From a virus: 64,000 nucleotides of DNA. Both the position numbers and the translations under genes were made by a program. Under the pieces are notes generated by a model. It was not told the origin of the DNA, did not search any database, and saw only the letters and a program-made list of their open reading frames with translations. The stretch lies in IMG/VR virus record IMGVR_UViG_3300042503_000209, positions 32,001 through 96,000 of that record; one strand, 5' to 3'. Shown here in pieces: positions 17,020 to 50,912 of this stretch (the stretch's first letter is position 1; each line of letters starts with the position of its first letter).

Positions 17020-17044
17020 GTGTTATGTGTATATAAATTAATAA

Positions 17045-30682: not shown

Positions 30683-30703
30683 GAATCTATCTTTATGTAT
30701 TGA

Positions 30704-33700
30704 TTACTTAATTAAATGACCTAAACCTACTGCTTTTAATGCTGCTTTAGGGTCCCAAACATTAACGTTTGCTTGTGTTGTGTTAAACTTTTGATACTCT
30801 AAATGAACATTTCTATTGTTATTCATATTCTGAAGATACAAACTTTGAAGATATGAAACAATTTCATCTGGAGATTTAGCACTATCACCTTGTAAATTTA
30901 TAGTGTGAAAATACGATTTATCTTCCACTTTTTTAACTAATTGTCCAGTTTGTGGATCTTTTACATTAGTTGCAACTTTATACTTTAAATCTACAGTAAC
31001 GTATTGTGGAACAGCAGAACCATTATCTGACATGACATTTGGTGTAATAGTATAACTAAATCCAGCAGCATCTAATATAGGGTCAGATTTAATCTGCTTA
31101 CCTCTAGTAATAGCATCATAAACCTGGAAACCAGTATTATTTGGAAGCTGATCAAGATAAGTACCAGAAGTATTATCTTTAACTACAAAATTAACTTCAG
31201 TACCTGAACTTATACTACTTAAATCAACTCCAGCAACTTGATCTTTAGATTCAGTTGAAATTGGTTTACTAAATATATATCTAATTGTTTTTTTACCATT
31301 AATGCCTTGAGGTATATACTGACCAGTACCGTATTCTTCAATGTTCTTTTCACTAGATAATAAAGTTTGAATACCTTTTATCATACTAGGATCTAAAGGT
31401 TTACCATCTTTATCATAAACATCCTGAACATTTCCTGGTTGTACAGCTTGATAAATTATCAAAGCTGCATTATCACCATTACCCATTGTCTTATTACCTT
31501 TTGTGTTTAAAGCAAAAAGAGTACCTTGTTGACCAGTTAAGTTCTTATACATTAAAAGATCTGGTACAACAGACTCGTGAGCAGCTTTAAGATTCTTTAC
31601 AAGATCTTGAGAAGACTTATATGTGGTGTTTAAAGATCCAATAGTTTTTCCTAAATCTTCCAAACCTGCTGGAATTGAATTATTACTATAACCAATACCT
31701 GAATTATATCTTCCATACAAATGATATTCTTTACCATCTTTTTTTACAGTATATCCAGCATATGTTGTAGTATTTCCACCTCCACCAAGTGCTGCTGCAC
31801 TAGACGATAAATTTTGAAAAAATGTAGGATCGTAGTCAGTTATATTACCTGTAACATAAGCTTTAGCTAAATCATCACTTGTTAACTTAACTTTATTACC
31901 ATCATCATCTTCAAAGTCATATGAACTTTTAAACTTAGGTGCTAAATTACTAGCTGTAACTAAATCTTTTTCTCCATTACCTACGTCAACTAATAATCCT
32001 TTATATTTTGGATCATTTTGAAGTTTATCTTGTACAAGTTTTTTTCTTTGAACTTCGTTAGCGTTATAACTATCTAATTTAGTTACTGCTGTAGAATATC
32101 TCATTAAAGCTTCAAACTCAGTATTAGTTAAAGCTATATCAGAACCATCAGCAGCTATCTTACTACGTTCAGATAAATAATCTCCAGCATATGCAATAAG
32201 AGCATTTCTTAATGTACCAGGTCCAGTTATAGTAGTTATACCTGCAGTTTTAACACCTTGACTATTAAGTAAGGCTGTTTCTAATTTTTTACTAGCAGCT
32301 GCTTGTTCTTTAGTAAACTTGTGAGCATAATCAGTAGCCACCTCAGTTTGTAAAGCTGTAGCTACATGTGCTATTTCTGCAGGATCTAATCCAAGTTTTG
32401 ATGCAAAACCTAAAATACCTTTTTGATCAAAGATCAAATTATGAGCATCAAGAAAAGCTTGCTTTTGATTTTTAGAATAAATATCAAAAGCTGTTTCAGC
32501 AGTCTTAGTAATATCTATACCTGATAAACCAGAATAAATTAATGAACCACTTTCATCTACTCCAGGTACAGGTGTACCATCAGCATTAGTTCCTGTACCT
32601 GTTCCAGTACCAGTTCCTGTGCCAGTTCCTGTAGCACCTTTAGCAGCTTTTATCTTTAAGTCTTCAGTCTTATACCATTGATCAAATGCAGCATTACTTA
32701 CTGCCAAGTTATGTTCAGCTCTTCTAAGTTCAAGACTTTGTGCAGCTGTAAAAGCAGCGTTTTCTTTAATAAGTTTTTGATCAATACTAGCTCTACCTGT
32801 AGCCCAGTTGTTAACAAGACGTTGTTTAGCTAATACACTAAAATATTGTTTTGGAGCAGCTAATACAGCTTCTTCCACTTTACCTTTTTCTTTATCAAAA
32901 TATTTATACTCTTCACCAATTGAAGCTTTTCTACCCATTAATTCAGAACGTTCTTCAACAAGTTTATTAAACATTGCTTGATTATTCGGACCACCTGTCT
33001 GACCTATTGAAGATAACAAACTATCAATTCTAGCTACTTCTACATCAATCTCTTGATTTCTTTTAGTATATCCTTGATTTAATTCTGATATAATATCTTT
33101 AGCAATTAGTTTTTGTATATCAGGTTCTGTAAGGTTTGGATTATTACGTTTTAATATTTTAGCACGCTCTTCATTCTCAACAGTACCAGTTATTTCAAAC
33201 TGACCTTGAAAGTTATTACCAATCATAGCAGATGCCCAAGTAGCATATTTCTTTTGAGAACGCTGTCCATTAACAGTCTCAATTAAATATGGTCCATTAG
33301 GATCATCATACTTAACATCCATACCTTGATCTTTAGCTTGTTTTTGTAACCAAGCTTCAATATTAGTAAACGGTTCAGCTTTACGCATTTCTATAGCACC
33401 AAACGCTTCAGGTGTTAACTCAGCATTCTGAAGTTTGCTTAAACCGTTTTGAAGATACATCATACCAATGTTGTTATACTTCTCACGCTCTTCTGGTTTA
33501 GCTGAATCTTTCCATGACATATATTTCTGCATCTCATTCTGATAAGACTTAGTCATAGCAATGTCTTGAACCATAAACTTGTTCTGCCAAAAAGGAGAAA
33601 AGATTTGTTCTGCAGCATTTACATTTTCCATAAGAGAAAGATCAGATGAAGAAAGTTTTGTCAACTTTTCTTGTGCATCTTTAATATACTGATCTCTTAA

Positions 33701-33886
33701 AGGAATAAGATTCTTATTAGAAAGAGGTGCGTTAAGCACTGAGGTATACGCAGATCTAACTCTACTAGCTCCTTGTTCAAACATAGATTGCTTCCTTTGA
33801 AGCATTCTATCATAGAAGTTAAAGTCCGGTTTATATAAAGCCGGTTCAGGAATTGTCTCTGGTATATAAGGAAGGTATTGTGCCAT
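30704..33886 (-). CDS. virion cargo/ejection protein (1060 aa)
   Basis: Position directly upstream of vRNAP; helical N-terminus; GT-repeat linker. Confidence 0.6.
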   Translation of the reverse strand: MAQYLPYIPETIPEPALYKPDFNFYDRMLQRKQSMFEQGASRVRSAYTSVLNAPLSNKNLIPLRDQYIKDAQEKLTKLSSSDLSLMENVNAAEQIFSPFWQNKFMVQDIAMTKSYQNEMQKYMSWKDSAKPEEREKYNNIGMMYLQNGLSKLQNAELTPEAFGAIEMRKAEPFTNIEAWLQKQAKDQGMDVKYDDPNGPYLIETVNGQRSQKKYATWASAMIGNNFQGQFEITGTVENEERAKILKRNNPNLTEPDIQKLIAKDIISELNQGYTKRNQEIDVEVARIDSLLSSIGQTGGPNNQAMFNKLVEERSELMGRKASIGEEYKYFDKEKGKVEEAVLAAPKQYFSVLAKQRLVNNWATGRASIDQKLIKENAAFTAAQSLELRRAEHNLAVSNAAFDQWYKTEDLKIKAAKGATGTGTGTGTGTGTGTNADGTPVPGVDESGSLIYSGLSGIDITKTAETAFDIYSKNQKQAFLDAHNLIFDQKGILGFASKLGLDPAEIAHVATALQTEVATDYAHKFTKEQAAASKKLETALLNSQGVKTAGITTITGPGTLRNALIAYAGDYLSERSKIAADGSDIALTNTEFEALMRYSTAVTKLDSYNANEVQRKKLVQDKLQNDPKYKGLLVDVGNGEKDLVTASNLAPKFKSSYDFEDDDGNKVKLTSDDLAKAYVTGNITDYDPTFFQNLSSSAAALGGGGNTTTYAGYTVKKDGKEYHLYGRYNSGIGYSNNSIPAGLEDLGKTIGSLNTTYKSSQDLVKNLKAAHESVVPDLLMYKNLTGQQGTLFALNTKGNKTMGNGDNAALIIYQAVQPGNVQDVYDKDGKPLDPSMIKGIQTLLSSEKNIEEYGTGQYIPQGINGKKTIRYIFSKPISTESKDQVAGVDLSSISSGTEVNFVVKDNTSGTYLDQLPNNTGFQVYDAITRGKQIKSDPILDAAGFSYTITPNVMSDNGSAVPQYVTVDLKYKVATNVKDPQTGQLVKKVEDKSYFHTINLQGDSAKSPDEIVSYLQSLYLQNMNNNRNVHLEYQKFNTTQANVNVWDPKAALKAVGLGHLIK
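32590..32640 (-). repeat. (Gly-Thr)n low-complexity linker
   Basis: Encodes GATGTGTGTGTGTGTGT with varied codons. Confidence 0.8.
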
Positions 33887-33890
33887 AGTT

Positions 33891-33948
33891 TACATATATA
33901 ATATACAATAAAATCTTTAAAGTTTAAAACTAAACCTTTAAAGTTTAA
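33891..33948 (-). promoter_or_regulatory. putative late promoter with two upstream AAAY-N7-GTTT palindromes
   Basis: Minus-strand core GTATATTATATATGTA; architecture is colinear with 53076-53133. Confidence 0.6.
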
Positions 33949-35978
33949 TAACCATATCCATCATCATAACCAAATGGGTATGCACTTTGAGCCATAGGTG
34001 CTCTATTTAAAGCAGCATATTGAGCATTAATAGCTGCAGCATTACCTGCACCCCTATTAGATTGAAAAGCATTAGGAAATTGAGATCTTAAAAACCCATT
34101 AATAGTAGCAGCATCATGTCCTTCATTTTTTAATTCAAGAGCAAATCTTCTCATAGCTGCTAAACTTTGTTCAGATGGTGCAGCACTTTGTCCAGTAATC
34201 ATACTCATCCAGTTATTCTTATCTTTCCATTTAAGAGTTTCACCTTGTGGTCCTTCTTCTATAGAATAATACGGATTAGTTTCATTAAGCATGTTAAGCT
34301 TACTGTATCTATCACGCTCATTCATATTATACATTTCTCTAGCTTTAAGATCCATTCTCATAGTATTACGATAAGCTTTATCTTCTTGCTGAGCATTAAA
34401 TGCTAACTTGTCTCCAGCATCTGCTCTATAAGCCATCACTCTATTCATAATATCAGTTTGTAAAGGACTAAACTGATTAGCTACCCCAACATTCATGTTT
34501 TGATATCTACCCATAGTGTTAGCTGCTTGCTCAGCTCCTTGTGCATTTAATGCACTAGCTCTAGCAGAAAACTGCTGAGGATCCATTTGAGACATATAAG
34601 CCGCCATCATGTTACGATTAGATGCACCTTCAGCTAACTCTCTATTAGGATCGTAGAACGTAGGTTCTGGTATCATAGCATTAAGAGGTGCTGCATAAGG
34701 AGTGTAACGTTTAGGAGGAACCATAAACTGCATACCAAAGAACGGTCTTCTACCACCGCCTCCACCACCGCCACCGGTTGTAGTTATAGTAGTAGGATCT
34801 TCTTCATAGGTAATCTCATCCATCTTTTCCCATGCTTTTATACACTTAGTAGGATCATTAGGATCTGGTGTATAACCTTCAGGACAAGTTTTAGTCTCAG
34901 GTGTTGTAGGTGTAGTTGTAGGTTTAGTACCAGGTGTATACTTTGGCATTCTACCACGTAAAAGCTCATCTAATCCTTTTTGCTTTTCCCCATCTGAAGC
35001 ATCTTTAAAACCTTGTTTATTTAAAAAAGTACTATAACAATTAGGTCTAGCATTCATATCAGCGACTGTGTACTTAAGATTAGCACATGGTCCACTACCA
35101 CCTCTACTACTGCCACCAGTTGGAATATTATATCCTGGAGTTAATGTTCCTGGTGTACCCCCAGATATAGTACCTGGTTTACCAGGAGTTATAATAATAT
35201 CTTTAGTATCTTTACCAGATGTTGCTTTTCTCCATACATTAGTATTACCTACACGCTTATATCCTTCTTTCTCATATTTACTTATTTCTTCCTTCTTAAC
35301 TTTTTTAGGAGTAGTTCCACCACCTTGATAATAACCTTCATCACCACCATAAAAACCTCCCATCTCAGCAAGTTGTTGTCCCATACCTTCTGGTAATACA
35401 GACATAGCTACATCAGGAATACCTTGAGGAAATCCTTTCATAGACTCTTGTACTAATGCAAGTCCACCAAGTTTTTTTTCATAGTTATCAATCATTCTTT
35501 CAGCTGTACGTTTAGCCATCTTATCAGCATAAGGATCATCAAGTATAGCTCTGTACTTGTTAACATCATACTGCTTAGCTAAAGCTGCTGGGGTAAATTT
35601 CTGTTTAGTGTTTTCTGACTTACCAAACTTTGCAAGTACAGGTCCACCTATTCGTAACTTCTTTGTATCAGAATAAATAAAAGTACCTTCAGGAACATTT
35701 AAAGGTGTACCACCATTAGTATGTCTTTCACCACCAATCTTCATATGTTCTTTACGACCATCATTATTAAAGTCTCCATATGCTGTTTCACCAAGCTCAG
35801 CTTCAATATTAGCTTCAGCTCTATCAACAGGTTGAAGAGTGTTAGATACTGACTCATATGGATTTTGGTTCATATCAGTGTATACATCTCGTTGCCCAAG
35901 ATCTAGACCATAGTTTTTTTGACCACCATACGCCATAGATTCTGGAGCACTTTTAATTCTTACTTTATACTTTTTCAT
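33945..35978 (-). CDS. virion protein with xxxGG linkers (677 aa)
   Basis: N-terminal EAExGE...GxxHxxGG...FIYSD domain; MAYGG/AEMGG/YQGGG linkers; Pro/Thr-rich middle. Confidence 0.65.
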   Translation of the reverse strand: MKKYKVRIKSAPESMAYGGQKNYGLDLGQRDVYTDMNQNPYESVSNTLQPVDRAEANIEAELGETAYGDFNNDGRKEHMKIGGERHTNGGTPLNVPEGTFIYSDTKKLRIGGPVLAKFGKSENTKQKFTPAALAKQYDVNKYRAILDDPYADKMAKRTAERMIDNYEKKLGGLALVQESMKGFPQGIPDVAMSVLPEGMGQQLAEMGGFYGGDEGYYQGGGTTPKKVKKEEISKYEKEGYKRVGNTNVWRKATSGKDTKDIIITPGKPGTISGGTPGTLTPGYNIPTGGSSRGGSGPCANLKYTVADMNARPNCYSTFLNKQGFKDASDGEKQKGLDELLRGRMPKYTPGTKPTTTPTTPETKTCPEGYTPDPNDPTKCIKAWEKMDEITYEEDPTTITTTGGGGGGGGRRPFFGMQFMVPPKRYTPYAAPLNAMIPEPTFYDPNRELAEGASNRNMMAAYMSQMDPQQFSARASALNAQGAEQAANTMGRYQNMNVGVANQFSPLQTDIMNRVMAYRADAGDKLAFNAQQEDKAYRNTMRMDLKAREMYNMNERDRYSKLNMLNETNPYYSIEEGPQGETLKWKDKNNWMSMITGQSAAPSEQSLAAMRRFALELKNEGHDAATINGFLRSQFPNAFQSNRGAGNAAAINAQYAALNRAPMAQSAYPFGYDDGYGY

Positions 35979-35999
35979 ATTCTTATAGATATTACAAAT

Positions 36000-37760
36000 T
36001 TATAGAAATTCTACTTCACCACCTGAAGCTAATATACTTTTTATTTCATCCTCTGTTAGTTCATATATACCTCCAGATTCATATTGTGATATTGTACCGC
36101 CATCAGCATACAACTTCATACCACTTAATTTATTGTATGCTTGCTTACCTTCCCATCTAGCAAATTGTTTTATTAACTTATCACGTTCTTCAGGAGTAAG
36201 ATCTGCTAACACTTTATCTGTCCCCATAGCTTTTACAATATCTGGGGTAGACGCATTAGTTTTATCTGGACTACCACTAACCCATTTGTTTCTAGCTTGA
36301 GATATTGTAAGGTTAGAATAAGCCGGACCAAATAAAAGATCTTGAGCTGCTCTAATACCTGTTTGAAAATCTGGAAATTTACTTACAAAACCACCACTAT
36401 CTTTAGCACCTTGTACACCACCATACTTAGAAGTAAAATCACCATGATGTATATTCAAAGGATTATTATGACTTAAAGCAATTTCACCATCCACATTACC
36501 ACCAGATGCTCTATTAAAACTTACATGAACATGATCTGTATGTGGACTTTTGCCATTATATGGTCTCCATGAATTAGAAACAGATGGATTCCAAATCTGT
36601 TTATTCCAAATAATATATTTAATATTTTTATCTTGAGCTTCTTTAATAAGCTTTTGAGCTATTTCGTTTCCTTGATCTAAACCTGTTATACCAATATCTA
36701 AAGCATCTCCAGTATTATGATCACTTACTGATTTCTTATGGTTTGCATCACCCCATATCCCCCAATTTTGAACTCCTTGAAACTGAGAAGAAACTTCTTT
36801 CCATGTTTGTTCTGCAACCGGATTAGCACCACTAGATTTAACTGGAGCTGGAGAAGCATTTTCAGAAGTAGCGTAAGCTTCACCTGTAGCCATTGGACTC
36901 TGTAAAGGCATAGAAAAAGGAATTTGGTCAACCGGTAACATTAACTCATCAGGTATAATGCCTCCACCATACTGTGCCATTCTTGGTAAGAATTGACCAG
37001 TATACATGCCTTTATTTACAACATACTCATCAGGTCTAAACTCTCCAAATCTGCTACCACTAACTACATAGTCTCCACGGTTACCTGACATCTCACTAGG
37101 TACTTCAGGAAACAAAGAATCTGTAGATGTTTGGCGTCTTAACCTTTTATCAAATTCTTGTTTTCTTTTATAACTATTTACAAGTTCAGTACCAAAGTTT
37201 CCCCATGATGTTAATCTATTAATATCTTGAAAAGCTTTTTCTACTGGTTGACCTATATTTTTACTGTACCAACTAACTGGATTTGTGGATGTATTAGATT
37301 GAGTATTAGCTGCTGCAGCTTGTGGTGCTTGATAAAACGGTGAAGCAGGATCTGTATCAAACTCCTCATCATCCCATTCAGAATGCCAAAATCTTTTAGG
37401 AGTTGTAGATGTTGTATTTGCAGCTGGAGCAGCAGTAGTATTAGTAGGTTGTACAGTAGGAGTAACTATAGAAGAACTACCACTAGGTTGTACAGGTGCT
37501 TGACCAAACGGTTTAAAAGTTAAACTAGGAAACTTAGGACCAGCGGCTTTAAGAGCATCTATCTTATTACCATTTTGCAAACCGAGTTTTTGTCTACCAG
37601 AATTTAAAAATAATGAAGACTGACTCATAAGTTGAGCATATCTAGGATCATTAGGAGATATTAATTCACCATTATAACTTAAAGTAGTAGGGACATTACT
37701 TTTCTGTTGTCCAGCAAGTTGAGCTTTAGGTAAACCTTTTCCTGTAATACGTATTTTCAT
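36000..37760 (-). CDS. modular virion protein: M15-type (Hedgehog/DD-peptidase fold) peptidase plus lysozyme-like NNPLNI domain
   Basis: SDHNTGDALD...HTDHVHVSF; HNNPLNI...F.....G..A...L...Y..LTI.....KW...ARWEG. Confidence 0.7.
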   Translation of the reverse strand: MKIRITGKGLPKAQLAGQQKSNVPTTLSYNGELISPNDPRYAQLMSQSSLFLNSGRQKLGLQNGNKIDALKAAGPKFPSLTFKPFGQAPVQPSGSSSIVTPTVQPTNTTAAPAANTTSTTPKRFWHSEWDDEEFDTDPASPFYQAPQAAAANTQSNTSTNPVSWYSKNIGQPVEKAFQDINRLTSWGNFGTELVNSYKRKQEFDKRLRRQTSTDSLFPEVPSEMSGNRGDYVVSGSRFGEFRPDEYVVNKGMYTGQFLPRMAQYGGGIIPDELMLPVDQIPFSMPLQSPMATGEAYATSENASPAPVKSSGANPVAEQTWKEVSSQFQGVQNWGIWGDANHKKSVSDHNTGDALDIGITGLDQGNEIAQKLIKEAQDKNIKYIIWNKQIWNPSVSNSWRPYNGKSPHTDHVHVSFNRASGGNVDGEIALSHNNPLNIHHGDFTSKYGGVQGAKDSGGFVSKFPDFQTGIRAAQDLLFGPAYSNLTISQARNKWVSGSPDKTNASTPDIVKAMGTDKVLADLTPEERDKLIKQFARWEGKQAYNKLSGMKLYADGGTISQYESGGIYELTEDEIKSILASGGEVEFL

Positions 37761-39151
37761 TAGTCAATAATTTCAAAGTTATAACCACCTTGTTTTAACA
37801 TTTGTAGTTCTTCTGGAGTGACATCTAATATATCACCTTCTACTGGACCACCCATTTGCTTAGCAAAGTTCCTAGCAAAGTTAGCTTTTTTCCTCATAGC
37901 AGGACTATATCTTCCTTCTGGTGCGTTAAGTATTGCTGATGCAGCTTCTTGTACTCCCATACCCATACGAGTAGCCTGTGCTTTAAATGTGCCAGCTTTA
38001 GCAGGATCTAATTGTATACCACCGTATGCCATATTAGATAATATCTGTTGTTGTACAAATTCAGGTAGAGCTCTAAAACCTGCATTGTTAGTACCACCTT
38101 TCTCATAAAAAGCATTACCACTAAATGTAGTACCACCTTCTTTCCATGTAGCTCTAGCAAATGCTCTAAAGAAAGGATTATTAGCTAAGTTCTTTTTATG
38201 ACGAGCATAGAAAGCTTTCTTTCTTTCTGGATCTTTAGGATGCTGACCTAACTTAGAATCACCAAAATATTTAACAACTCCACCAGGTCCTGTCACTTTA
38301 TGTGTCTTACCCTTACGATCATTACTTCTAGTTACAGTGTATCCACCTCTTGCCATCATTTCTTTTTCATCTTCTTGCTCATACTCTTCATCTTCCATTT
38401 CTTCACCTTGAGCTTCAGGATTATACATCATATAATCTGAAATACTATTTACACTATCATCAATCACAGCAAGCTTAGAAGCAATCCATGGATCTAAGTT
38501 TTGTTCTGGAGAAACAAACTGACGTAGTTTATTCATCTTATCAGCAACAGCAGACATTTGACCTAGTGCCATACCACCGTTTGGTTCACCACCTTCAGCA
38601 AACACTCCTGTCATATAACCACCATATCTCATAGCAGCTTGCTGCATGTCTGGTTGTTGCATACCAGGTTGTTGTGAACCAGCTCCTTGTTGTTGTACAG
38701 CTTGAACCATTTGTTCAAAAGCTCTTTGCTGATCTTCTGGAGACATCTGCTGTAATTGCTGTAAAATCTTTTCAGGTTCTACTTGGTTCATTTGAGCAAA
38801 CTGCTGAATAACCATCATAATCTGATCTTGTTGTCCACCCTGCTGCATATATTGGTTTCCACCATACATCATTTCTGGAGCATATCCACCATAGGCATAA
38901 CCGTAATTATCCATTTGATCTAGATTACCAGCTGCTGCAAAACGTGCACGAGCTATTTCAGGTGGCATTTTTTCTCCACCACCTCCCATTACTTCCATAC
39001 CGTATTCAGCTTTACGCCAAGTGCCGCCTTTAGATTTATACCACTTAGCAGCCCATCCGTTAGCATAAGCACTAGGGTAGACATCAAATTTTTGTTTAGC
39101 CATAGACTTAGCTCTAGACCACAAGGCAGGATTATTAGGTTTGTTTGCCAT
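37760..39151 (-). CDS. multi-module protein with 12 xxxGG linkers (463 aa)
   Basis: Short basic, acidic and Gln-rich modules each bounded by a GG motif. Confidence 0.7.
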   Translation of the reverse strand: MANKPNNPALWSRAKSMAKQKFDVYPSAYANGWAAKWYKSKGGTWRKAEYGMEVMGGGGEKMPPEIARARFAAAGNLDQMDNYGYAYGGYAPEMMYGGNQYMQQGGQQDQIMMVIQQFAQMNQVEPEKILQQLQQMSPEDQQRAFEQMVQAVQQQGAGSQQPGMQQPDMQQAAMRYGGYMTGVFAEGGEPNGGMALGQMSAVADKMNKLRQFVSPEQNLDPWIASKLAVIDDSVNSISDYMMYNPEAQGEEMEDEEYEQEDEKEMMARGGYTVTRSNDRKGKTHKVTGPGGVVKYFGDSKLGQHPKDPERKKAFYARHKKNLANNPFFRAFARATWKEGGTTFSGNAFYEKGGTNNAGFRALPEFVQQQILSNMAYGGIQLDPAKAGTFKAQATRMGMGVQEAASAILNAPEGRYSPAMRKKANFARNFAKQMGGPVEGDILDVTPEELQMLKQGGYNFEIID

Positions 39152-39160
39152 AATATATAA

Positions 39161-42100
39161 TTATTTTTTGTATTTAAATTTAGGATTATTAGGATTAAAA
39201 GGAGCATACTGATTAGTGTTCCATATACGTCCATACCATGTATCATAATAATCACTATTAGGTACACCCGGTGCTGGGTTATTTATATTTCTATAATACC
39301 AATCTCTACCTTTATTCATTAAAACTCTTCTCTTATTTTCAGGAAGTTTACCAATAGTATTAGCATACTCTTTATCAAAAGAATAAGCTGGATTTTTTCT
39401 ACCAGACCATTTGCCATCAGCATCTAATTTAGATGGATCATATTGTCTGTAATATTCTTGTAAAGCATATGCTCTAGGATCTTTAGTTATTTTATTATTA
39501 GTTTTATCCCAACCAGCATTAAATATAAAATCCATAGCTTCACCAGCTTCCATAGCACTTGCACCTGGCATTATCTTTTTTACTTCTGGATAAACCTTTT
39601 CCATTAACATTTTCATGTAACTAGGATCACTATAATATGGTAAAGGAGAACCGCCAGGACCACCTCTAAGTTCCTCATACTTTAATATATTTCCAGCAAT
39701 GTTTCTTACACTATCAGCTGAAGAAACTTGACCAGCAAACTGCATTTTTTTATGATTGTATGGAATACGTTCACTACTTGTTTTAGTCCTTTTAAATTTA
39801 TCTTTTTCTGCAGAACTCATTTCAGATGATGTCTTAGGTGTCTGAGAGTTTACTCTTTTAGAAGGACGACATGCTGGATAGCCGGCTCTCTTTTCTCCTT
39901 CTTGTCTACCGCACGCTTTACCAGTCTTTACATCTACCCACTTCTCTGCAAACCATCTATCTAAACCACCATGTTGTCCACCACTTTTCATCTTAACAGT
40001 ACCACCACACTTATGACAAGTCATTGGATCATAACCACCATCAGCAGCTTTCCATGACCATCCACAATTAGAACAAGAAACATTCTTGCTTAAAAGTCCA
40101 CCATTCTTAACTTGAGGTATAGCATCAGAAGCATAAGATGTTTTATTCTTTACTACATTATTATGAAGATCTGCAAGCTTTTGAGGATCGTTTCCAATTA
40201 TCTTTAAAATATCATCTAAACTATTCAGACTATTTTCTTTGCTCTTAAAAAGTTCATCACGAAAATTTTTAAAACTTCCCTTATAGTTATTATGATCATT
40301 AATGATCTTTTTCATATCCTCTGCTGTATACTTCTTTTTTGGATCTAGATTATACTGATATCTAAACTCATTAAGACGAGCATTTATTTCAGTTGGAGTA
40401 GAAAGATAATCATATTCATTTCTGGTACTAACATATCTATCAGTTTTAAAATTTTTGTTTTTAGGAATTACTTGTTTAGAAATAAAACTACTAGGAGTAC
40501 TGTATAAATTAGCATCCCAAAACCATCTAGGTTGATCATAAAAAGTATTATCCTCATAATCCATTTTATGAGTAAGTTCATGAATTTGAGTAGGGGCACT
40601 AAAACTTGTTGGATAATCAGTATTAAAGTTTAATGAAGAATCTTTAGGGGTATAAAAAGCCTGAGTATTATATAGATTTTCATTTGTCTCTATATCTTTA
40701 TTAGTGTATGTTTTATATTTTCCTGATAAATTATCTAAAACAGATAATCTGCTATTAGCCCATTCAGTAAACTTAGGATCCTTAGCTCTTTCAGTTAACC
40801 AATACTGCATAAAATTACGCATATCTTTGTAACCTTCTTTTAAAGAACCATCTTCAACTGTTATTCTAGTGTCATGATTATGAGCATACTTTTTCTTATT
40901 AACGTTTTTATTAAGAGCTGCCATAGTTGCCAAGTCAGATCTAGATAGACCACCACCTGACCACCCACCTTTTTGCATCATTGGATATTCATCTACATAA
41001 GATGCACCACCAAAGTTATAATCCTTACCAGGATACATTACTTGTTTCTTACCGTTGTTACCTATTCCTAATACAGGATATGGTACACCTTGCATTGTAA
41101 TATCTGATCCAGGTATACGAGTAACTTTACCAGGGTGAGCCCATTGACCACGAGGATCTAATATAGGTCCACCTTGTTTTTTATAATTTTGCATTCCTGC
41201 ATACACTCCAAATTGACCTACTTCAGCTGGGGGAGCTGAAGGAAAAAATGGAACATTAGGAGCTTGTTGAATAGCTTGTATAGCATCTGTACCACGACCT
41301 GCATAGGGTACTCCCTGTATAACTTTACTAACTGCATCTAATCCAATTTTATGACGGGCTTTCAAACCAACTTTAGATGCATTACTCATCATCTTACCAA
41401 ATTTACCTACCTTTCCTAACAAAGGAAGTGCACCAAATATTTCAAGTTCTGTTTGAGGAGACATTCCAGTTTCTTTGTATGATTTGTAAACATCATCCCA
41501 AGAACTTAGTCCTGTTGGATCAATTATTTCAAATATATTTTCTAAAGTAGAATCAGTTTGACCACCTCGTTGCTTCTTAGCACTACCCTTTTGTTTTTCA
41601 AATTCAGTAATACGAGGTTGTCCAGTAAACGGTTGAATGTTATTTAACAACTCATAATACTCTGCATAAGTAGGATTAGATTTATTCTTATTAATATATT
41701 CTAAACTTTTAACAAAGTTAGGATTTGTAAAGATCTCAGGATACTTAGCTTTAAGTTCATCAAACGCAGTCTTTTGTCCTTCTTTAGCTAAGCCAATATG
41801 TGCAACGTCCCAGTCTTCAAGATGATACATTCCTGTTTTATCAGCAGCACTCCAAAGAACATCTTTATATAACTTTTTATTTACATTAGCATCAATAGGT
41901 TTACCATCTACATATAGAACGTAATCTTTTGCTGCATCAAAATTATGAAGAGATACTGGAGTTTGAGAGTTACCTTTTTTCTGAATCTCAAGTTGTGATT
42001 GTATATCACGTCCACCAGTCTTATCATAAAGACCAGTGTTTTGATAGCCAACACTAACCTTTTTACCAGGATATAATGATTGAAGTTTCTTAGTAGCTTC

Positions 42101-45100
42101 TTGTTCAAACTCTGCAAACTTAGCCAATGGTCTACTAGTTTGTTGACCAGGTAGTAAATAAGCAAAGTTACCACCACCTGTATTTAAATTATCATATGCT
42201 CTTAAATCAGCAGCAGTAAATTTTTGATCTTTTGTACGAAGTCCACGAGAATAAGAACCATTATCTAAACTAACTACAGTTACATATGGATTCTTTCCTT
42301 TAATACGTTTAAACTCTTCTTCAATATTTTTTAAAGATCCACTTACTAAACGAGTCTGTCCATCAGGAGTCTTAAAAATAAAACGTCCACCTGTTGCTAC
42401 ACCAAAAGCTTCATCAGCTTTATCTCCTTTAGGTAGCACTAAATTAAGCTTTCCTTGTACTTGTTTACCTTGGTCATCAAGTACTGTAACAGCTGGTGAA
42501 AAAGCGTTCTTACTAACCTTAGATCCAGCAGCAACTTTTTTAATACTTCCTGATGGTTCTCTAATAAAATCTACTACTCTATTAGAAAATACACGACTTA
42601 CTTGTACATCTTTATTTTCAAAGTCTTTACGTTGACCAACTTGTATTTTACCATCTGGACTATAAGCTAAATATGTAGCGTTAGCTGGATCATCTTTAGC
42701 ACTAGCAAAATATGTTTTAGCATTTTCAAAAGGATGGAATGCTGTAATAGAAGCAGCTTCTGAATCTATAGGGGTAAAGTCTCCTCTGTTACGTACACCA
42801 AAACGTAATGCATCAATATCCATACTTTCTGGTATATGGTATTGACGACCACCAGCATCAGGAATAGTATCTCCTGTAACATACATAGGAGCAAAATCAT
42901 ACTTAGGAACTATGATTCTACTCTTAGGATCGTTAGCCATGTTCTTAATAGCCTGTTGACGGTCTAACCAGTTTTCATACTTTTGAGCCATGTCTGGAGA
43001 AAACAAACCTATTGCTTTTTTAGTAACGTCTCTTGTTATCTCATTAGCTCCTTGTGGAGACATACCCGATGGTCCAAAACTCATGTTGCTAAAATCAAGA
43101 CCACTTTTATTTACAGCTTCTGAATAAGAATCATAAAGATCTGAAAAGAAGTTTGATGTATTATCAATAAATTCTTCATACCAAGGTTTTTCTACTTCAG
43201 TTGTAACCTTCTCAGTTTTTACAGCTGGTTTATTAGCTGGTATATATGGAAGTAAGTTTTTTTGTTGTGGTCTATAGAAAGAATAAAAATTTGGGTTAGT
43301 AAACATATTGTTTTGACCCATTAAATTTTTTACACCAAATCCTGATTCTTGATTCATAGGACTTACTTCTTCTTCAGTATTGTATACCTCAGAAGTAAGC
43401 GGACCCAGTATTGGTTTTCTAGTAGCTGGAACAAAAGGATTGTATTGAGGAAAAGTTAGTGTTGATTTTGGAGTAGCACCAGTTACAGGACGAGTAACTT
43501 CAGGTGTAACTTCAGGTGTTATTTGAGTAGTAGTATTTCGTTTACCAAATCCAAAAGGTAAAGGAATAACCATTTGAGGCTTTAAAGAAAACTTATCATA
43601 CTTAACTTTAGGTTGTAAAGATACATTTATCTTTGGAGGAGTTATTCTCATATCTCCATATTCAGGACTAAACGTATAATAATTACCAGGATTAACAGGT
43701 CGTTGAGCTGGTGGTGGAGCAGCATTTTGAGCAGCAGCTTGTCTTGCAGCTCTAGCTTGGTTCTCCATCTCCATTATTCTTTCTACAGATATTGGAGCCT
43801 GTGTTGGTTGATAACTTTGTTCTAATAAATCATCATTCTCACGAAGTTTATTAAGAAGCTCTGTATTCTTAGCAGCAGAATAATCATAACCTTCTATACC
43901 ATACTTATCAGCAAGTTCTTTTCTAAATGCTTTCTTACCAGAATATCCTCTAGTAGCTAAATAATCTACAATACTTGGTCCTTTATATTCTAAACCTTCT
44001 TGAGCAAACACTCTAAACATATTGTTTTCTCCACCATATCTTTGTTCTTTTTGACCAGCCATATTCATACCAGCATTGTATGCAGCATTAGTTAGAATAA
44101 AAGGTATACGTGGATTTTCATAATTTCTATTACGTCCAAAAAAAGCATTAGTTCTTCTTTTAGCATAGTCACCAACAACACTAGGAATTCTAGATAAAGG
44201 ATTACCTTTTACCATGTAAATACTAGGTTGTTCATAATATGAAGCCCATGCATTATTTCCAATGTTTTCATCTAATATTTTAGTCATAGGAAAGTTTAAA
44301 CCTGTCTTTCTATTAACTTCAATAATAGGTTTATCTAATGTAGGTTTATAATTATTTAAAAACTCTTCAAAAGACTTTTTAGCGTTATAATCTGTCTGAG
44401 CTGCATACGGTAAATCACTTATAATTTGAGAACTTATACCATCTCTTTCTAACTGAGCAGCTTTTTGTAAAGATTGAGGATCACCTAGTTTCTTTAAATA
44501 GTCAACACGATTTTTTAAATTCTCAGCGTAAGTAGCTGCACCAGGTATTGTACTTTCTACGTTTTTTGGTAGGGCGTTACTAACCCTTTTACCCATATTA
44601 CCTGACCAGTTTAATGTTTGAGTTGTACCAGGATTAACTACAGTAAATCCTTTTGGAGATCTAGCAGCTTGTGTCCAAAATAATGGAGCTGAGTTTTTAC
44701 TCATATTTCCATCAAAAGTAAATGCTCCTTTAGGTAGTGAAGCCATTTCTTGAGACATCATTCTAGACACTTCATCCGCAGGTATATTAAAATATGAGTG
44801 ACCATATATATCACCTGGTCTTGTACCACTAAGTTCAAGAGCTCCAGCATTAGCTGCATTTCTTATTCTACCCAAGCCACTAGTCATTCCTGCTGTACCC
44901 TTATATGCTTTAGTAGCTCCTTGTAATCCTTTAGAAACAAAGTTAGCTCCTTGAACACCTTCTGCTACAAAAGGAATAGCTCCTAAACCATGCATTGCTG
45001 TATTTAAAAAATCCATTCCACTTAAACTAAATGGATCAGTTACTCCTTTATATGCTATATTGCCAACACCTTTACCAAACTCTTTTGCTTCATTCATATA

Positions 45101-45514
45101 GAAAAAAGGATTAACCAAATTTGCAGCTAAATCTAAAGAGTTCTTTTTTCCTCTCTCTAAATGATCAGGTATATCTCTTCCTTGAACTTTATAAGCTAAA
45201 GCTGTCATAGGATTAGTAGCAATAGACCAAGCTTTAGAAGCCATGGATTGTGCAGGTTCTGCTTGTCTAATATATCCTTGTCTATCTCTAGCAGCTTGAT
45301 CTGCAGCACGTTTAGCTAAAACTTGTTTAGCTATAGCATCCTTTTGTATTTTTGCTCTAACAACAGCAGGATTAGGTATGTTATCATAGACAGGTCTTTC
45401 GTTAACTGGAACTTTAAACATTACTGTACCAGCCCTCTGCATTTTTGGAAGCCCAGGAAGAATCTTGTGATCTACATCACCTGCATTAATAATATGTTGT
45501 AATAACTTATTCAT
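39161..45514 (-). CDS. multi-module virion polyprotein (2117 aa): cell-wall hydrolase, zincin, Zn-ribbon and basic modules
   Basis: SIVDYL (DUF3597-like), SLHNFDAAKD...WDVAH (M15), HELTH...EINARL zincin, CxxC-CxxC, GH108-like C-terminus; GG linkers. Confidence 0.7.
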   Translation of the reverse strand: MNKLLQHIINAGDVDHKILPGLPKMQRAGTVMFKVPVNERPVYDNIPNPAVVRAKIQKDAIAKQVLAKRAADQAARDRQGYIRQAEPAQSMASKAWSIATNPMTALAYKVQGRDIPDHLERGKKNSLDLAANLVNPFFYMNEAKEFGKGVGNIAYKGVTDPFSLSGMDFLNTAMHGLGAIPFVAEGVQGANFVSKGLQGATKAYKGTAGMTSGLGRIRNAANAGALELSGTRPGDIYGHSYFNIPADEVSRMMSQEMASLPKGAFTFDGNMSKNSAPLFWTQAARSPKGFTVVNPGTTQTLNWSGNMGKRVSNALPKNVESTIPGAATYAENLKNRVDYLKKLGDPQSLQKAAQLERDGISSQIISDLPYAAQTDYNAKKSFEEFLNNYKPTLDKPIIEVNRKTGLNFPMTKILDENIGNNAWASYYEQPSIYMVKGNPLSRIPSVVGDYAKRRTNAFFGRNRNYENPRIPFILTNAAYNAGMNMAGQKEQRYGGENNMFRVFAQEGLEYKGPSIVDYLATRGYSGKKAFRKELADKYGIEGYDYSAAKNTELLNKLRENDDLLEQSYQPTQAPISVERIMEMENQARAARQAAAQNAAPPPAQRPVNPGNYYTFSPEYGDMRITPPKINVSLQPKVKYDKFSLKPQMVIPLPFGFGKRNTTTQITPEVTPEVTRPVTGATPKSTLTFPQYNPFVPATRKPILGPLTSEVYNTEEEVSPMNQESGFGVKNLMGQNNMFTNPNFYSFYRPQQKNLLPYIPANKPAVKTEKVTTEVEKPWYEEFIDNTSNFFSDLYDSYSEAVNKSGLDFSNMSFGPSGMSPQGANEITRDVTKKAIGLFSPDMAQKYENWLDRQQAIKNMANDPKSRIIVPKYDFAPMYVTGDTIPDAGGRQYHIPESMDIDALRFGVRNRGDFTPIDSEAASITAFHPFENAKTYFASAKDDPANATYLAYSPDGKIQVGQRKDFENKDVQVSRVFSNRVVDFIREPSGSIKKVAAGSKVSKNAFSPAVTVLDDQGKQVQGKLNLVLPKGDKADEAFGVATGGRFIFKTPDGQTRLVSGSLKNIEEEFKRIKGKNPYVTVVSLDNGSYSRGLRTKDQKFTAADLRAYDNLNTGGGNFAYLLPGQQTSRPLAKFAEFEQEATKKLQSLYPGKKVSVGYQNTGLYDKTGGRDIQSQLEIQKKGNSQTPVSLHNFDAAKDYVLYVDGKPIDANVNKKLYKDVLWSAADKTGMYHLEDWDVAHIGLAKEGQKTAFDELKAKYPEIFTNPNFVKSLEYINKNKSNPTYAEYYELLNNIQPFTGQPRITEFEKQKGSAKKQRGGQTDSTLENIFEIIDPTGLSSWDDVYKSYKETGMSPQTELEIFGALPLLGKVGKFGKMMSNASKVGLKARHKIGLDAVSKVIQGVPYAGRGTDAIQAIQQAPNVPFFPSAPPAEVGQFGVYAGMQNYKKQGGPILDPRGQWAHPGKVTRIPGSDITMQGVPYPVLGIGNNGKKQVMYPGKDYNFGGASYVDEYPMMQKGGWSGGGLSRSDLATMAALNKNVNKKKYAHNHDTRITVEDGSLKEGYKDMRNFMQYWLTERAKDPKFTEWANSRLSVLDNLSGKYKTYTNKDIETNENLYNTQAFYTPKDSSLNFNTDYPTSFSAPTQIHELTHKMDYEDNTFYDQPRWFWDANLYSTPSSFISKQVIPKNKNFKTDRYVSTRNEYDYLSTPTEINARLNEFRYQYNLDPKKKYTAEDMKKIINDHNNYKGSFKNFRDELFKSKENSLNSLDDILKIIGNDPQKLADLHNNVVKNKTSYASDAIPQVKNGGLLSKNVSCSNCGWSWKAADGGYDPMTCHKCGGTVKMKSGGQHGGLDRWFAEKWVDVKTGKACGRQEGEKRAGYPACRPSKRVNSQTPKTSSEMSSAEKDKFKRTKTSSERIPYNHKKMQFAGQVSSADSVRNIAGNILKYEELRGGPGGSPLPYYSDPSYMKMLMEKVYPEVKKIMPGASAMEAGEAMDFIFNAGWDKTNNKITKDPRAYALQEYYRQYDPSKLDADGKWSGRKNPAYSFDKEYANTIGKLPENKRRVLMNKGRDWYYRNINNPAPGVPNSDYYDTWYGRIWNTNQYAPFNPNNPKFKYKK

Positions 45515-45517
45515 GTC

Positions 45518-48500
45518 TTACCTAAAAGATTGTTGTATTTTCTGATTAGATATCTTAAAGATCATTTTTAAATCATTGCTAGTTAGTTTTCTAAGCAACA
45601 CTTTATTTACATTATGTCTAAACTTCTTACGTTCTAATACAGGTTTCTGATAGTTTACGTAAGCTGGGTTAATTTGAAACTGATAACCATTAGCTCTTGT
45701 ATTAAACATAGGTACATTATTACTAGCAAACTCTCCACGATTTTTAGTTATATCCCAGAACTGATTAAATCTATATTTATTCTCTTCTTTAGAATAATTA
45801 ATCTTTATAGAAGATGTGCCTACTTGAGGATAAGATAGCATATCTACTGGATTAACCTTACTCTTTAAAGTCATCTCTAATAAACCAGATACTTGTTCAG
45901 AGTTATATATAATAGCTTGATCAAAGTTCTCATCTAAGATATGAAATTTATCAGCACATCCATTATGATATTTATAAGTTTCAAGCAAGTATTCTATATT
46001 CCTTACAGTTGTAACTGTCTGACCTGTAGACGATATAAACTCAACCTCAAACGGATAATCTTTATTATAGAAGTTAGCAAACTTATCACAACGCTGATTA
46101 TGCTTCCACACCGTATTAGAATTCACACTTAAGAAATGAGCTCTACCAGGAAGTAAGAATGTAGGAATCCAATCATGGAAAGAAATCCACATCTTGCTTT
46201 TAGGATCATAACTTATAGTCCAAGAAGCTTCTTCAAATGCTTCACTCTTAAATGTGTAATAAGTCTTGGTTCCGTTTATAGTTCTATAAAATCCATTAGA
46301 GTCATATGCTAAGTCAGAAAACTTTGGTTTGTAATCTTTCTTAGTAATATATAAAATCTCGTGTGTATTGTCATAGATCATCTGTACGCCAACACCAGAT
46401 ACTGGATTATCATATAATGGATAATCTGGAAAAGCTTTTAGTAACTCACTAGGTAAATACTTAGCAAACCACCATTTCATTCCATTACGAGATATTTCAT
46501 TTAACCCACCGGCATACTGAAATACTTTACCCTGGTTCTGACTTACCCAGAATACACCATGTGTAGTACCTACAGAACAATATCTACCTTGGTTTGATCC
46601 ATACTCATATGAGTCATCAGCATTTACTAAGTTCTGGAAAGGTTGACTAAACAATCCGCCATCACCAATAGTAATCTTAGTACCTGCATCTGTCTGTAAC
46701 TGATCTACTCCCATAAACTGTATAGGACTTTGATCAGCTAACATGAACAACGCACCGTTTTTATTAACAGACTTAATATTAGATATTCTAGAGCTAAAGT
46801 CTTTATAGTTATTAGCTAAGAATACTCTCCAGTTATCTTTGCTAATCTCATCCTGTTGAGGAAGAGAATAGATTGCACGGTTAGGTCTATATGTATAGCA
46901 TGTAGAGTAAGTCTCAGGATCATAGTTCCTAGGAAGTACGTTACCCCATGAAATAAAATTACTGTATAGTTTAGATACACTTAAAGAGTAATCATACTTG
47001 TAATAGTTACCGCTTCTAATAATATCACTTCTAAACATCAAGCTTAGATCAGTAAATGAACTGCTATCATAGTGACGCTTAGATGTTTCGTCTTCCCAAT
47101 CACGGTAAGCTAAGTTAATCTCAGACTCAACAAAAAACTCTCTTACACCAGAGTTAAACAAGTAAATATATCCTTGGTGGATATAAAAGAATCTACTTAC
47201 ACTTTTATCTAGGTGATGATGTTCTTTAGCTGAACTCTGTAAAAGTTTATATTCTGCTTCAGCAGTATTCATCCAATATCTTGGATAAGGTACATTTATA
47301 TAGTTTCTATAGTCATAAGCAGTTTCATCTGGGAAGTCAATCATCCAGTCATTAAAGAATGGCATAGTGTTCTTCTCAGTAAACTTATTGATGTATACAT
47401 CACCTCCAAATAAAATATCAGAAGTAAACTTAACTCCTGTTGCACCATTAGTCTTTCCAACACAGGTAGAAACTGGTACTTGTTTAATAGACTCTAACTG
47501 ACCATACTGTGCTGGTAAAGGAATTTTAATAGCACCATAGTGACATGATATATTTCTTTGAAATCCTTTTCTAGGTTCTACACCAGCATCACTAATAAGC
47601 ACTCTACTATTATCAACATTCCTAGGGTTTGCAAAAGTCTTTCCAGATGGAAGTTTAATAACTACAAAGTTTCCTCTGTATAAGTTATTGATTCTAAATC
47701 CATTATTAAAACCTTGAACGTTTCCTCCTACATATAAACTATCATCAATTTTTCTTCTTCTGTTACCAGTTTGTGACTGAGTAAACTTATTAAAAAATCC
47801 ATGAGAGTTATATTGTAAAGCATACTGACGTCTAGGAATTAAACCATAAACTAAAATTTGTATCTGAGCACTAGTAGTTTCAGTATGTATGTATTTTACT
47901 ACAACTAGTTGAGCTGCATAACTAAATTGATTAATACCATAAGCTATATTATCAACTAAACCTGATACTAATGATCCTGCACCAGGAGCAATTAGATTTG
48001 TTATACCTCCAAGAACCGATCCTAATACTGTTTTCTTTGGTTCAGGTTTTACAGGAGTAACATTAAGTTTAACAGGAAGTTTATCATTACCTGTAAATTC
48101 TACAGCACCTGGAGGTAATTCACTAGATATACTATTAATAATTCTAACTATTTGTAAAGCTTTATTTATGAATTCTATATCTTTACCAATAAACTTATTT
48201 TTAGGATGTCTCCAAGGATGCTCAAAAGCTCCTTGAGATTTACCATAAACTTCACCATACAGTTTTACTTCCTGTACAGATAAAAATGGTTTAGTAAACG
48301 TTGTATCAGGACTATGAAAAGAAAATATATCTTTTCTATAATCTCTTAAAGGATCTTTCTTACGATTAGTAAATGAACCGTCATTAATGATCTCTTCATT
48401 AGAAGTTAAATAGTAGTCATCTGATAAGTCATTATACGGATAGTTCTGGAACAATCCTTGAACACCTACTGTACCCTCTTGAATTGTATACTCACGCATA

Positions 48501-50560: not shown

Positions 50561-50912
50561 GTTTTATTTCCAGCTTCTTCTTTTCTAAAAATTTATATAC
50601 CACTGCGGTTAAATGTCCAGCTAACCATGCTTGAGCTTCTTCATCTGATATTCCTCTATCTTCTGTCACTCTAACTACAGCGTGAAACATCTCGTGAGCT
50701 ATTGTGTTATGCGTTAGATATTTAACACCTAGTAATAAATAGTAAACATCTATATCATGCATAATCAAAGCTCCTTCTGCTTCATCACCAAAATCATCTT
50801 TTATTTTGCACTTCTTGTAAATCTTCTCTGCTTCAGCAGCAACACTGTCAACTATACTTATAATTATCTTACAACTATAAGTAGGTAAATTTATCGTGGT
50901 GCTTAGCTTCAT
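50553..50912 (-). CDS. small stand-alone zincin-like metallopeptidase
   Basis: IAHEMFH...DEEAQAWLAG (HExxH plus downstream Glu). Confidence 0.6.
   Translation of the reverse strand: MKLSTTINLPTYSCKIIISIVDSVAAEAEKIYKKCKIKDDFGDEAEGALIMHDIDVYYLLLGVKYLTHNTIAHEMFHAVVRVTEDRGISDEEAQAWLAGHLTAVVYKFLEKKKLEIKHG

Follow-up and report, generated by a model that had tools for sequence, protein, structure and literature searches.

A Gly-Gly junction peptide marks exchangeable module borders in C1-type cargo proteins of crassviruses

Among the phages of the human gut, crassviruses are the most abundant, and relatives of theirs are common in water. In crAss001, the genes for cargo proteins C1 (gp45) and C2 (gp46) sit between those for the muzzle protein and the virion RNA polymerase (PMC10172136). 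Here, we describe four adjacent genes of an uncultured phage that lie at the same position, in a stretch of 64,000 nucleotides (nt) from IMG/VR record IMGVR_UViG_3300042503_000209 (positions 32,001 to 96,000 of the record; hereafter the window, in whose coordinates features are given). Encoded on the minus strand between 33945 and 45514, the proteins P0001, P0002, P0003, and P0004 (also p2117, p463, p586, and p677, for their lengths in amino acids [aa]) are punctuated by a short recurring peptide with the strict form [MFYWH]-x-x-G-G, in which the first residue is designated P5 and the Gly-Gly pair P2-P1. The motif is real and specific, being a feature of C1-type cargo proteins and of small proteins related to them, and it marks borders at which modules are exchanged. 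A literature search yielded no published description of it or of cargo processing in crassviruses, and Bayfield et al. 2023 (PMC10172136) describe neither the motif nor module exchange. As a preliminary description of this DNA had supposed, the junction peptide is apparently undescribed so far.

The closest described relative of the locus is gp45 itself, whose gene likewise directly follows the muzzle gene and precedes the virion RNA polymerase genes and whose Gly-rich, largely disordered chain contains aromatic-x-GG junctions. However, gp45 is the product of one gene (842 aa), whereas the four proteins considered here total 3843 aa, include LAS peptidase-like, HExxH, and DUF5872-half modules in addition, and lack a match to PF25725. 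A wider comparison can be made with internal head proteins. The IP proteins of T4, which carry a capsid-targeting sequence, are cut by gp21 and the inner-body proteins of phiKZ by gp175 at signals that end in Glu; these prohead proteases are known serine proteases with genes in the head module. The present proteins would resemble them in being capsid internal and injected and do share a short recurring signal at leaders and between parts, but neither a protease nor a cut product is known here, and one site appears to be uncut.

Eukaryotic viruses offer a precedent for Gly-Gly itself. Adenovirus adenain and pS273R of African swine fever virus (ASFV) mature core proteins at this pair, the adenovirus rule being (M/I/L)xGG with a hydrophobic residue at P4. 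A shared trait is that Gly-Gly follows a hydrophobic residue in internal virion proteins that are basic and associated with DNA; in contrast to adenovirus, P5 here is Met, aromatic, or His with Leu/Ile depleted, P4 is Gln, Ala, or Lys, and the clan CE families searched (Peptidase_C48 and C5) had no match in the 83%-complete record. With respect to double-glycine leader/C39 systems, leaders of 20 to 25 aa that end in the motif exist here, but, unlike in bacteriocin leaders, the motif is also internal, and a C39 match was not obtained in the record. Finally, polyvalent proteins, as reportedly described by Iyer, Burroughs, Anand, de Souza, and Aravind in 2017, are giant multimodule proteins thought to enter the host with the DNA, and they are said often to embed a zincin-like peptidase that was proposed to release parts. 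A junction peptide is not part of their description, and the HExxH module found here is dispensable in orthologues and has no Pfam polyvalent-peptidase match. Modules of the small viral DUF5872, DUF5754, and DUF6321 proteins also occur in the present system, whereas DUF5754 is found in other phages without GG punctuation.

The junction motif and the modules it separates

All four open reading frames (ORFs) and all motif coordinates quoted in the preliminary description (the low end of the five codons) proved right, including 12 sites in P0002. The strict motif occurs at 0.57 per 100 aa in the four ORFs versus 0.09 in the 66 others of the genome (odds ratio, 6.5; P = 4e-9), a comparison that the preliminary description had proposed as a check. 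In composition-preserving shuffles of individual proteins, P0002 stood out with 17 GG pairs versus 5.9 expected and 10 strict motifs versus 1.0 (P <= 0.001), as did P0004 with 19 GG pairs versus 7.8, a run of nine Gly included, and 5 motifs versus 1.1 (P = 0.006). P0001 was borderline (19 versus 12.9 GG pairs and 5 versus 1.9 motifs; P about 0.05), and P0003 was not significant alone (8 versus 4.7 and 2 versus 0.6; P about 0.1); the enrichment signal is driven chiefly by the 463-aa and 677-aa proteins. The adjoining giant proteins (1680, 1060, 4545, and 1718 aa) showed no GG excess in the shuffles, in line with the earlier remark that they contain only scattered GG pairs.

Two details of the preliminary description need amendment. 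Its statement that codons differ between copies holds only at the three non-Gly positions: the 15-nt copies have a mean DNA identity of just 57%, but GGT accounts for 42 of the 56 Gly codons. Likewise, its motif is sound at the core (aromatic/Met-x-x-G-G) but was drawn too loosely, admitting Lys at the first position and counting variants of the A-G kind (MQRAG, FAQEG, MQFAG, and AQLAG) that are not Gly-Gly. Some GG pairs in P0001 and P0004 are not junctions, either, and belong to CxxCGG zinc knuckles or lie within conserved folded modules.

The pattern extends well beyond this genome. Scanning viral contigs with P0002 gave 74 loci with 140 distinct cargo ORFs, which contain 1937 GG pairs versus 1154 expected, whereas the other ORFs of the same contigs contain 1120 versus 1148. 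Among 1193 unique GG contexts from this family set, P5 is Met, Phe, Tyr, Trp, or His in 52% (background, 13.8%), while Leu, Ile, and Val are depleted at this position (5.9% versus 14.6%); further preferences are Gln/Ala/Lys at P4, Tyr at P3, and Tyr/Glu at P1'. This position-specific context is absent from the non-cargo ORFs of the same contigs. The family-wide enrichment of Cys at P6 and P3 is distinct from this context, as it derives from the CxxCGG zinc knuckles.

The motif coincides with the ends of homology. For P0001, 20 of 72 unique BLAST segment ends lie no more than 3 aa from GG junctions versus 3.7 by chance (P <= 2e-4), and for P0002, 23 of 65 unique ends do so versus 14.2 by chance (P = 0.009). 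When P0002 is aligned with 10 orthologues (identities, 48 to 86%; alignment A1), the GG pairs form invariant columns between which entire modules are deleted or relocated. A Gln-rich module is lacking in three of these eleven sequences, the "PGF-ALP...MAxGG" module stands early in most relatives and late in P0002, and the final GG of P0002 is QG in half of the orthologues. P0001 orthologues retain the 28-residue leader ending in MQRAG and exchange the parts downstream of it. In most of them (e.g., loci L007 to L011) a HELTH (HExxH) module, a candidate zincin at P0001 residues 1518 to 1806 (40097..40963, minus strand), is missing, the deletion spanning precisely the interval from MQKGG to VKNGG; it is present in loci L030 and L031. 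Modules are therefore gained, lost, and reshuffled exactly at motif borders, as the preliminary description had anticipated for related genomes.

Such findings leave little room for the view that the pattern is a functionless by-product of low-complexity sequence rich in Gly, Met, Tyr, and Gln. The four proteins are indeed Gly rich (8 to 11%), and the shuffles of P0003 and P0001 taken singly are nonsignificant and borderline, as would be expected in that case. However, the excess in P0002 persists when composition is kept, the GG columns are invariant across orthologues, the context around GG is missing from the other ORFs of the same contigs, and homology breakpoints coincide with the motif, so that we judge this explanation to be very improbable.

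Small relatives of the modules are abundant. More than 2300 short metagenome proteins (<254 aa) match P0002 modules, and all 16 that were inspected have the same punctuation. Some of the short GG-punctuated proteins carry Pfam DUF5872, DUF5754, or DUF6321.

Gene position and kinship with crAss001 gp45

The source record is linear, 108 kb long, and estimated by CheckV to be 83% complete; the window has a G+C content of ~34% and a long virion block on the minus strand, to which all genes named below belong. In the order of transcription, this block runs from a tail fibre gene through small structural genes to those for tail ring protein 2 (51806-52480; Pfam CrAss_Ring_2, E = 1.8e-21) and tail ring protein 1 (50916-51809; Pfam CrAss_Ring_1, E = 2.4e-12). 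A 119-aa ORF with an HExxH sequence follows (50553-50912; faint SprT-like match, E = 0.077) and precedes the gene for a 1680-aa protein at the muzzle position (45518..50560; PHROG virion structural protein, E = 4e-70). Then come the genes for P0001 (39161..45514), P0002 (37760..39151), P0003 (36000..37760), and P0004 (33945..35978), succeeded by three giants (1060, 4545, and 1718 aa; 11863..33886) at the position of the virion RNA polymerase. BLASTP against crAss001 gp47, gp49, and gp50 identified the 4545-aa giant as a fusion of gp47-like and gp50-like parts and the 1718-aa giant as gp49-like, while the 1060-aa giant had no match to gp44, gp46, gp47, gp49, or gp50.

Because this gene order is that of crAss001 gp45/gp46, the four genes lie at the crassvirus cargo position, in line with the virion cargo system supposed in the preliminary description, and we consider it most likely from their context that their products are packed into the particle and injected. 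Genes for the portal, major capsid protein, and terminase were not recognised in the 108-kb record. Since related contigs measure 110 to 130 kb and the record is 83% complete, the head module is probably missing from it. A Megablast search of the region against a phage collection gave zero matches.

Two side observations concern this neighborhood. Beyond the window and upstream of the tail fibre gene, a minus-strand 1852-aa ORF (positions 97632-103190 of the record) has seven strict [MFYWH]xxGG motifs, and its density of 0.38 per 100 aa is the highest among the large ORFs outside the four genes. Furthermore, an HExxH stretch (TPFKYHEAFH / TYHEAFH / TPFHEYLH) is conserved between crAss001 gp47, at residue 2157, and two of the giants encoded here, those of 4545 aa (17045-30682; near residue 1766) and 1718 aa (11863-17019; near residue 158).

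Direct homology to gp45-position proteins is carried by a module of P0002 at residues 377 to 434 (37850..38023, minus strand), flanked by MAYGG and KQMGG. Homologous modules occur in gp45-position proteins of Steigviridae and of Dulem virus 41; the identity is 76% for Dulem virus 41 (E = 7e-24) and 42% for the gp45 homologue of cr128_1 (E = 1e-11), while the match to crAss001 gp45 itself (~373 to 419) is weak (E = 0.05). In Suoliviridae phage cr10_1 (MT774382.1, 10643-12174), the module (58% identity; E = 8e-15) is a stand-alone 75-aa gene, annotated as "transcriptional regulator," whose product opens with a 20-residue leader ending in YKNGG. It is immediately preceded by an HExxH "peptidase" gene, and its location, with the portal gene on one side and the major capsid gene on the other, is the one at which many phages have their prohead protease. 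A Pfam search (E <= 10) with the cr10_1 "peptidase" gave nothing usable.

gp45 itself shows the punctuation, in the form of FSAYGG (205 to 210), AFAEGG (259 to 264), KAFGG (329 to 333), AKDGG (370 to 374), NAFGG (424 to 428), and MFAYGG (558 to 563). The segments of gp45 resolved by cryo-electron microscopy are a tail-barrel helix (214 to 245) and a portal-bound domain (425 to 552) (PMC10172136), each of them inside or adjoining a module that motifs delimit. Pfam PF25725 (crAss_CARG1) maps to gp45 residues 424 to 555 (E = 2.6e-69) and thus starts at the motif. No PF25725 match was obtained in the record in a six-frame search (E <= 10), direct BLASTP of P0001 and P0004 against crAss001 gp45 gave nothing significant, and hhalign of the P0004 N-terminal family with the portal-bound domain of three gp45 homologues gave a weak resemblance (E = 0.014; probability, 3%). 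In view of the absent PF25725 match and the weak resemblance of P0004, the four proteins may be called C1-like on the grounds of their gene position and a single module in common, but not proven members of the C1 family.

Module repertoire and gene borders

P0001 opens with its conserved leader, followed by a peptidoglycan-binding-like stretch and a variable middle. Then follow a conserved beta module, the HELTH module, a CxxC zinc ribbon, the C-terminal half of DUF5872, and a C-terminal domain. The beta module (residues 1450 to 1517; 40964..41167, minus strand), between KKQGG and MQKGG, recurs more widely in relatives than any other module of P0001; alignment A2 shows 30 invariant columns in it, and 15 homology segments end at residue 1517, while a protein atlas search with it gave no lead. 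For the HELTH module no Pfam family was found, and no HExxH segment had a Pfam peptidase match (E <= 10). The CxxC ... CxxCGG knuckle, resembling a zinc ribbon, lies at residues ~1818 to 1841 (39991-40063, minus strand) between two junction motifs. Pfam searches (E <= 10) of the middle and C terminus of P0001 and searches of the PDB with the P0002 and P0004 sequences returned nothing usable or relevant, respectively.

The C-terminal half of DUF5872 (P0001 1841 to 1913; 39776..39994, minus strand; PF19197 positions 46 to 111; 50.6 bits, with a cut-off of 27.5) begins directly after MKSGG, and its presumptive N-terminal half is found in P0002 (residues 5 to 50; 39002..39139, minus strand; PF19197 positions 1 to 45; 19.2 bits, below the cut-off), where it ends in KSKGG and is 89% identical to cyanophage proteins. 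The halves thus reside in two different genes in swapped order, and the split of the profile at 45/46 coincides with the KSKGG junction of P0002. In Phage C72C1 (OQ984150.1, 4995-5401), DUF5872 consists of two adjacent small genes, the first ending shortly past ...RRGG and the second opening with the "GKWF..WVD" half, so that the halves are separable beyond crassviruses too. In Aphanizomenon phage CL131 (MG209611.1, 3402-7583), a 1393-aa "portal protein" contains a DUF5754-like module (~533 to 598) without GG punctuation, so that in an unrelated phage this small basic module forms part of a protein internal to the capsid.

P0002 resembles beads on a string, with 12 Phi-x-x-GG junctions that separate modules of 8 to 80 aa. 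P0003 has a putative LAS/M15-type metallopeptidase-like core (H-x6-D ... H-x-H; weak Extensin-like_C match, E = 0.013) and three GG junctions near its C terminus, and P0004 has a widely conserved N-terminal module (residues 20 to 221) between MAYGG and YQGGG that at times occurs within larger fusion proteins. The preliminary description had spoken of a cassette of small effectors, a term that fits in part only, as many modules comprise just 8 to 30 residues.

At the borders between the smaller genes, matching end strands are found. P0002 ends in a helix, GG, and the acidic strand YNFEII (37763..37846), and P0003 begins with the basic strand MKIRIT and the motif variant LPKAQ-x-AG (37704..37760). 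Similarly, P0003 ends in GG, a helix, GG, and the acidic strand EVEFL (36003..36095), and P0004 begins with the basic strand KYKVRIK followed by P-x-x-MAYGG (35922..35978; all minus strand). Downstream genes in the window begin 0 to 21 nt after the ends of the acidic strands, their basic strand being followed by Pro and the motif. All 15 related loci that were checked retain the last 15 residues of P0002 and have a next gene that begins with M[KR]IRI (MKKKVRI in L059) within 0 to 5 nt, and the 10 orthologues in alignment A1 share tail residues 436 to 448. The C-terminal tail of P0003 is kept in 10 related loci with split 586/677 genes (invariants G51, G52, E55, and F56 in alignment A4), and the N terminus of P0004 has the invariants M1, K2, V6, R7, I8, P12, and M15 to Q20 (alignment A3). 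Relatives with fused genes have the basic strand, together with its motif, in the interior of one chain. From this arrangement we infer that the separate proteins may be fission products that are recoupled head to tail by strand pairing. A complex prediction for the P0003 C-terminal tail with the P0004 N-terminal domain (score, 0.04) gave no verdict.

Possible roles of the junction

The reading that we prefer, to which we assign a probability of roughly 45%, is that the motif is an uncut joint that combines a hinge with a handle. The four genes would then be an expanded, partly split version of the crassvirus ejection protein "cargo protein 1," encoding chains of small, independently exchangeable modules of peptidoglycan hydrolase-like, zincin-like, basic DUF5872/DUF5754-type, and short helical nature. 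At each border, [M/Y/F/W/H]-[Q/A/K]-x-G-G would stay uncut and terminate the preceding helix, with Gly-Gly as a flexible hinge that lets each module fold, unfold, and thread the portal and tail independently and with the aromatic or Met residue as a small anchor or handle. Where the chain is split into proteins of 463, 586, and 677 aa, the upstream acidic strand would recouple with the downstream basic strand, head to tail.

Structure prediction is in keeping with such a joint. In the AlphaFold 2 (AF2) model of P0002, none of the 12 junction GGs lies inside a helix or strand; 6 are located 1 to 4 residues past a helix end and the others in coil. This is the outcome of the AlphaFold check proposed in the preliminary description, obtained with a poor model (mean predicted local distance difference test [pLDDT] score, 43). 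For P0001 1300 to 1930 the model was poorer still (pLDDT, 37), with only the beta module reaching 56 to 75, and a fold search with it gave generic helical-hairpin matches only (Z <= 7); the quality of both models is insufficient for conclusions about domains. Read as Phi(C3)-x-x-G(Ccap)-G(C')-Phi(C''), the junction would fit a Schellman-type helix cap. Moreover, the AFGG sequence at gp45 425 to 428 heads the published portal-bound model, which runs to residue 552 (PMC10172136), and PF25725 starts there as well, so that this site appears to be uncut in virions: a single modelled chain from 425 to 552 would imply an intact Gly428-Trp429 bond, as judged from the residue range.

Several points weigh against an uncut hinge. 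A plain hinge leaves unexplained why P5 is restricted to aromatic residues, Met, and His, and even a generic helix cap would not exclude Leu, Ile, or Val at this position. Nor does it account for proteins that start with M-K-x-G-G right before their first module (L059 and P0048) or for motifs that bound modules of even 8 to 10 residues. The AF2 models are of low confidence, the evidence for an uncut site comes from a published residue range and concerns one site in one phage, and cutting after ejection would escape detection in virions.

In a rival reading, the motifs would be sites of cutting, as the preliminary description had proposed. A phage protease would dice the cargo polyproteins there, in the capsid or after ejection, and release small basic peptides and enzymes, in a manner reminiscent of adenovirus core maturation, the processing of internal head proteins by T4 gp21 or phiKZ gp175, or the self-processing proposed for polyvalent proteins. 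The HELTH module, the conserved HEAFH sequence in the gp47-like giant, the 119-aa protein with HExxH, or an unrecognised enzyme would be candidates. A short, strictly conserved motif with specific P5 and P3 residues looks like a recognition sequence, some modules are too short to be domains, and P0004, crAss001 gp45, Dulem virus P0005, and the cr10_1 stand-alone protein have leaders of 20 to 25 residues with the motif at their end. HExxH motifs occur in proteins of the cargo block, and a HEAFH stretch is common to crAss001 gp47 and the 4545-aa protein (E = 5.6e-5), so that the conserved HExxH of gp47 and the giants could be a packaged zincin; in Suoliviridae, the HExxH "peptidase" gene that adjoins the stand-alone module is located between the genes for portal and capsid. 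Furthermore, parts of gp45 are located 420 Å apart, at the tail barrel and the portal wing (PMC10172136), which separate fragments might explain simply.

However, cutting at the motif lacks support on several counts. Peptidase_C48, C5, C39 (PF03412), and S78, the four families searched, had no match in the 83%-complete record, which probably lacks the head module, and the complete crAss001 genome had no C48 or S78 match; a divergent enzyme may have escaped these searches. The HELTH module is missing from most orthologues, and the HExxH segments match no Pfam peptidase. The selected residue is P5, not P4, as would be expected for an adenovirus-like enzyme; one junction tolerates QG in place of GG; AFGG heads the portal-bound gp45 model; and the split genes retain matching end strands, which would be odd if the pieces were to separate. 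Published work on crAss001 gives no sign of cargo processing. Overall, we regard protease sites as doubtful, and the more specific proposal that crassviruses dice C1-type cargo at Gly-Gly, via a particle-borne HExxH module or an unrecognised enzyme, as unlikely.

Published virion data were also reexamined. We compared matrix-assisted laser desorption ionization (MALDI) peak lists of crAss001 virion gel bands 1 to 10 (Shkoporov 2018 source data) with tryptic digests of gp19 to gp52. The bands resolve as gp50 plus gp47, gp49 (plus gp44), gp20 (weak), gp26 plus gp22, gp22 plus gp25, gp25, and gp23, while gp45 never rises above decoy level and semitryptic GG peptides match at chance level. The mass spectrometry of Bayfield 2023 was performed on one excised whole-sample band and so carries no intact-mass information, and the supplement comes without a peptide list (PMC10172136). 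Two protease-free routes to separate products were considered and rejected from the sequence: 2A-like ribosome skipping, as NPGP does not occur, and self-cleavage of the intein, hedgehog, or Ntn type, as Cys, Ser, and Thr are not enriched at P1'.

Alternatively, the motif might be a repeated docking or loading signal, likewise uncut, whose copies bind the capsid wall, portal, rings, scaffold, or DNA with avidity, comparable to encapsulin cargo-loading peptides or the T4 capsid-targeting sequence. Aromatic residues, Met, or His at P5 and Tyr at P3 would suit a linear motif that binds a pocket, motifs at extreme N termini ahead of the first module would make sense, as would the shared punctuation of the small metagenome proteins, and the portal- and ring-bound segments of gp45 adjoin motifs. 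On the other hand, the packaged proteins gp46, gp47, gp49, and gp50 and their counterparts here lack the motif, which consequently cannot be a general packaging signal, and the DUF5754 module occurs in other phages without it. A receptor is not known, and where the structure has been solved, the adjacent folded segment or helix, not the motif, is described as the binding part (PMC10172136). Docking as the main function hence seems improbable to us, the uncut hinge with a handle remaining our preferred explanation.

The distinction matters for the infection process. If the chains are cut, dozens of small basic peptides and enzymes would be released in the capsid or just after injection. A tailed phage would then show core maturation of the adenovirus kind, the parts of crAss001 gp45 at the tail and at the portal would be separate fragments, and the model of one threaded chain would need revision. 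In any case, the junction peptide provides a handle on how crassviruses load and eject several megadaltons of protein. It predicts where the first-ejected cargo chain, including crAss001 gp45, bends, docks, or is cut, and it explains the evolution of cargo proteins by cassette exchange.

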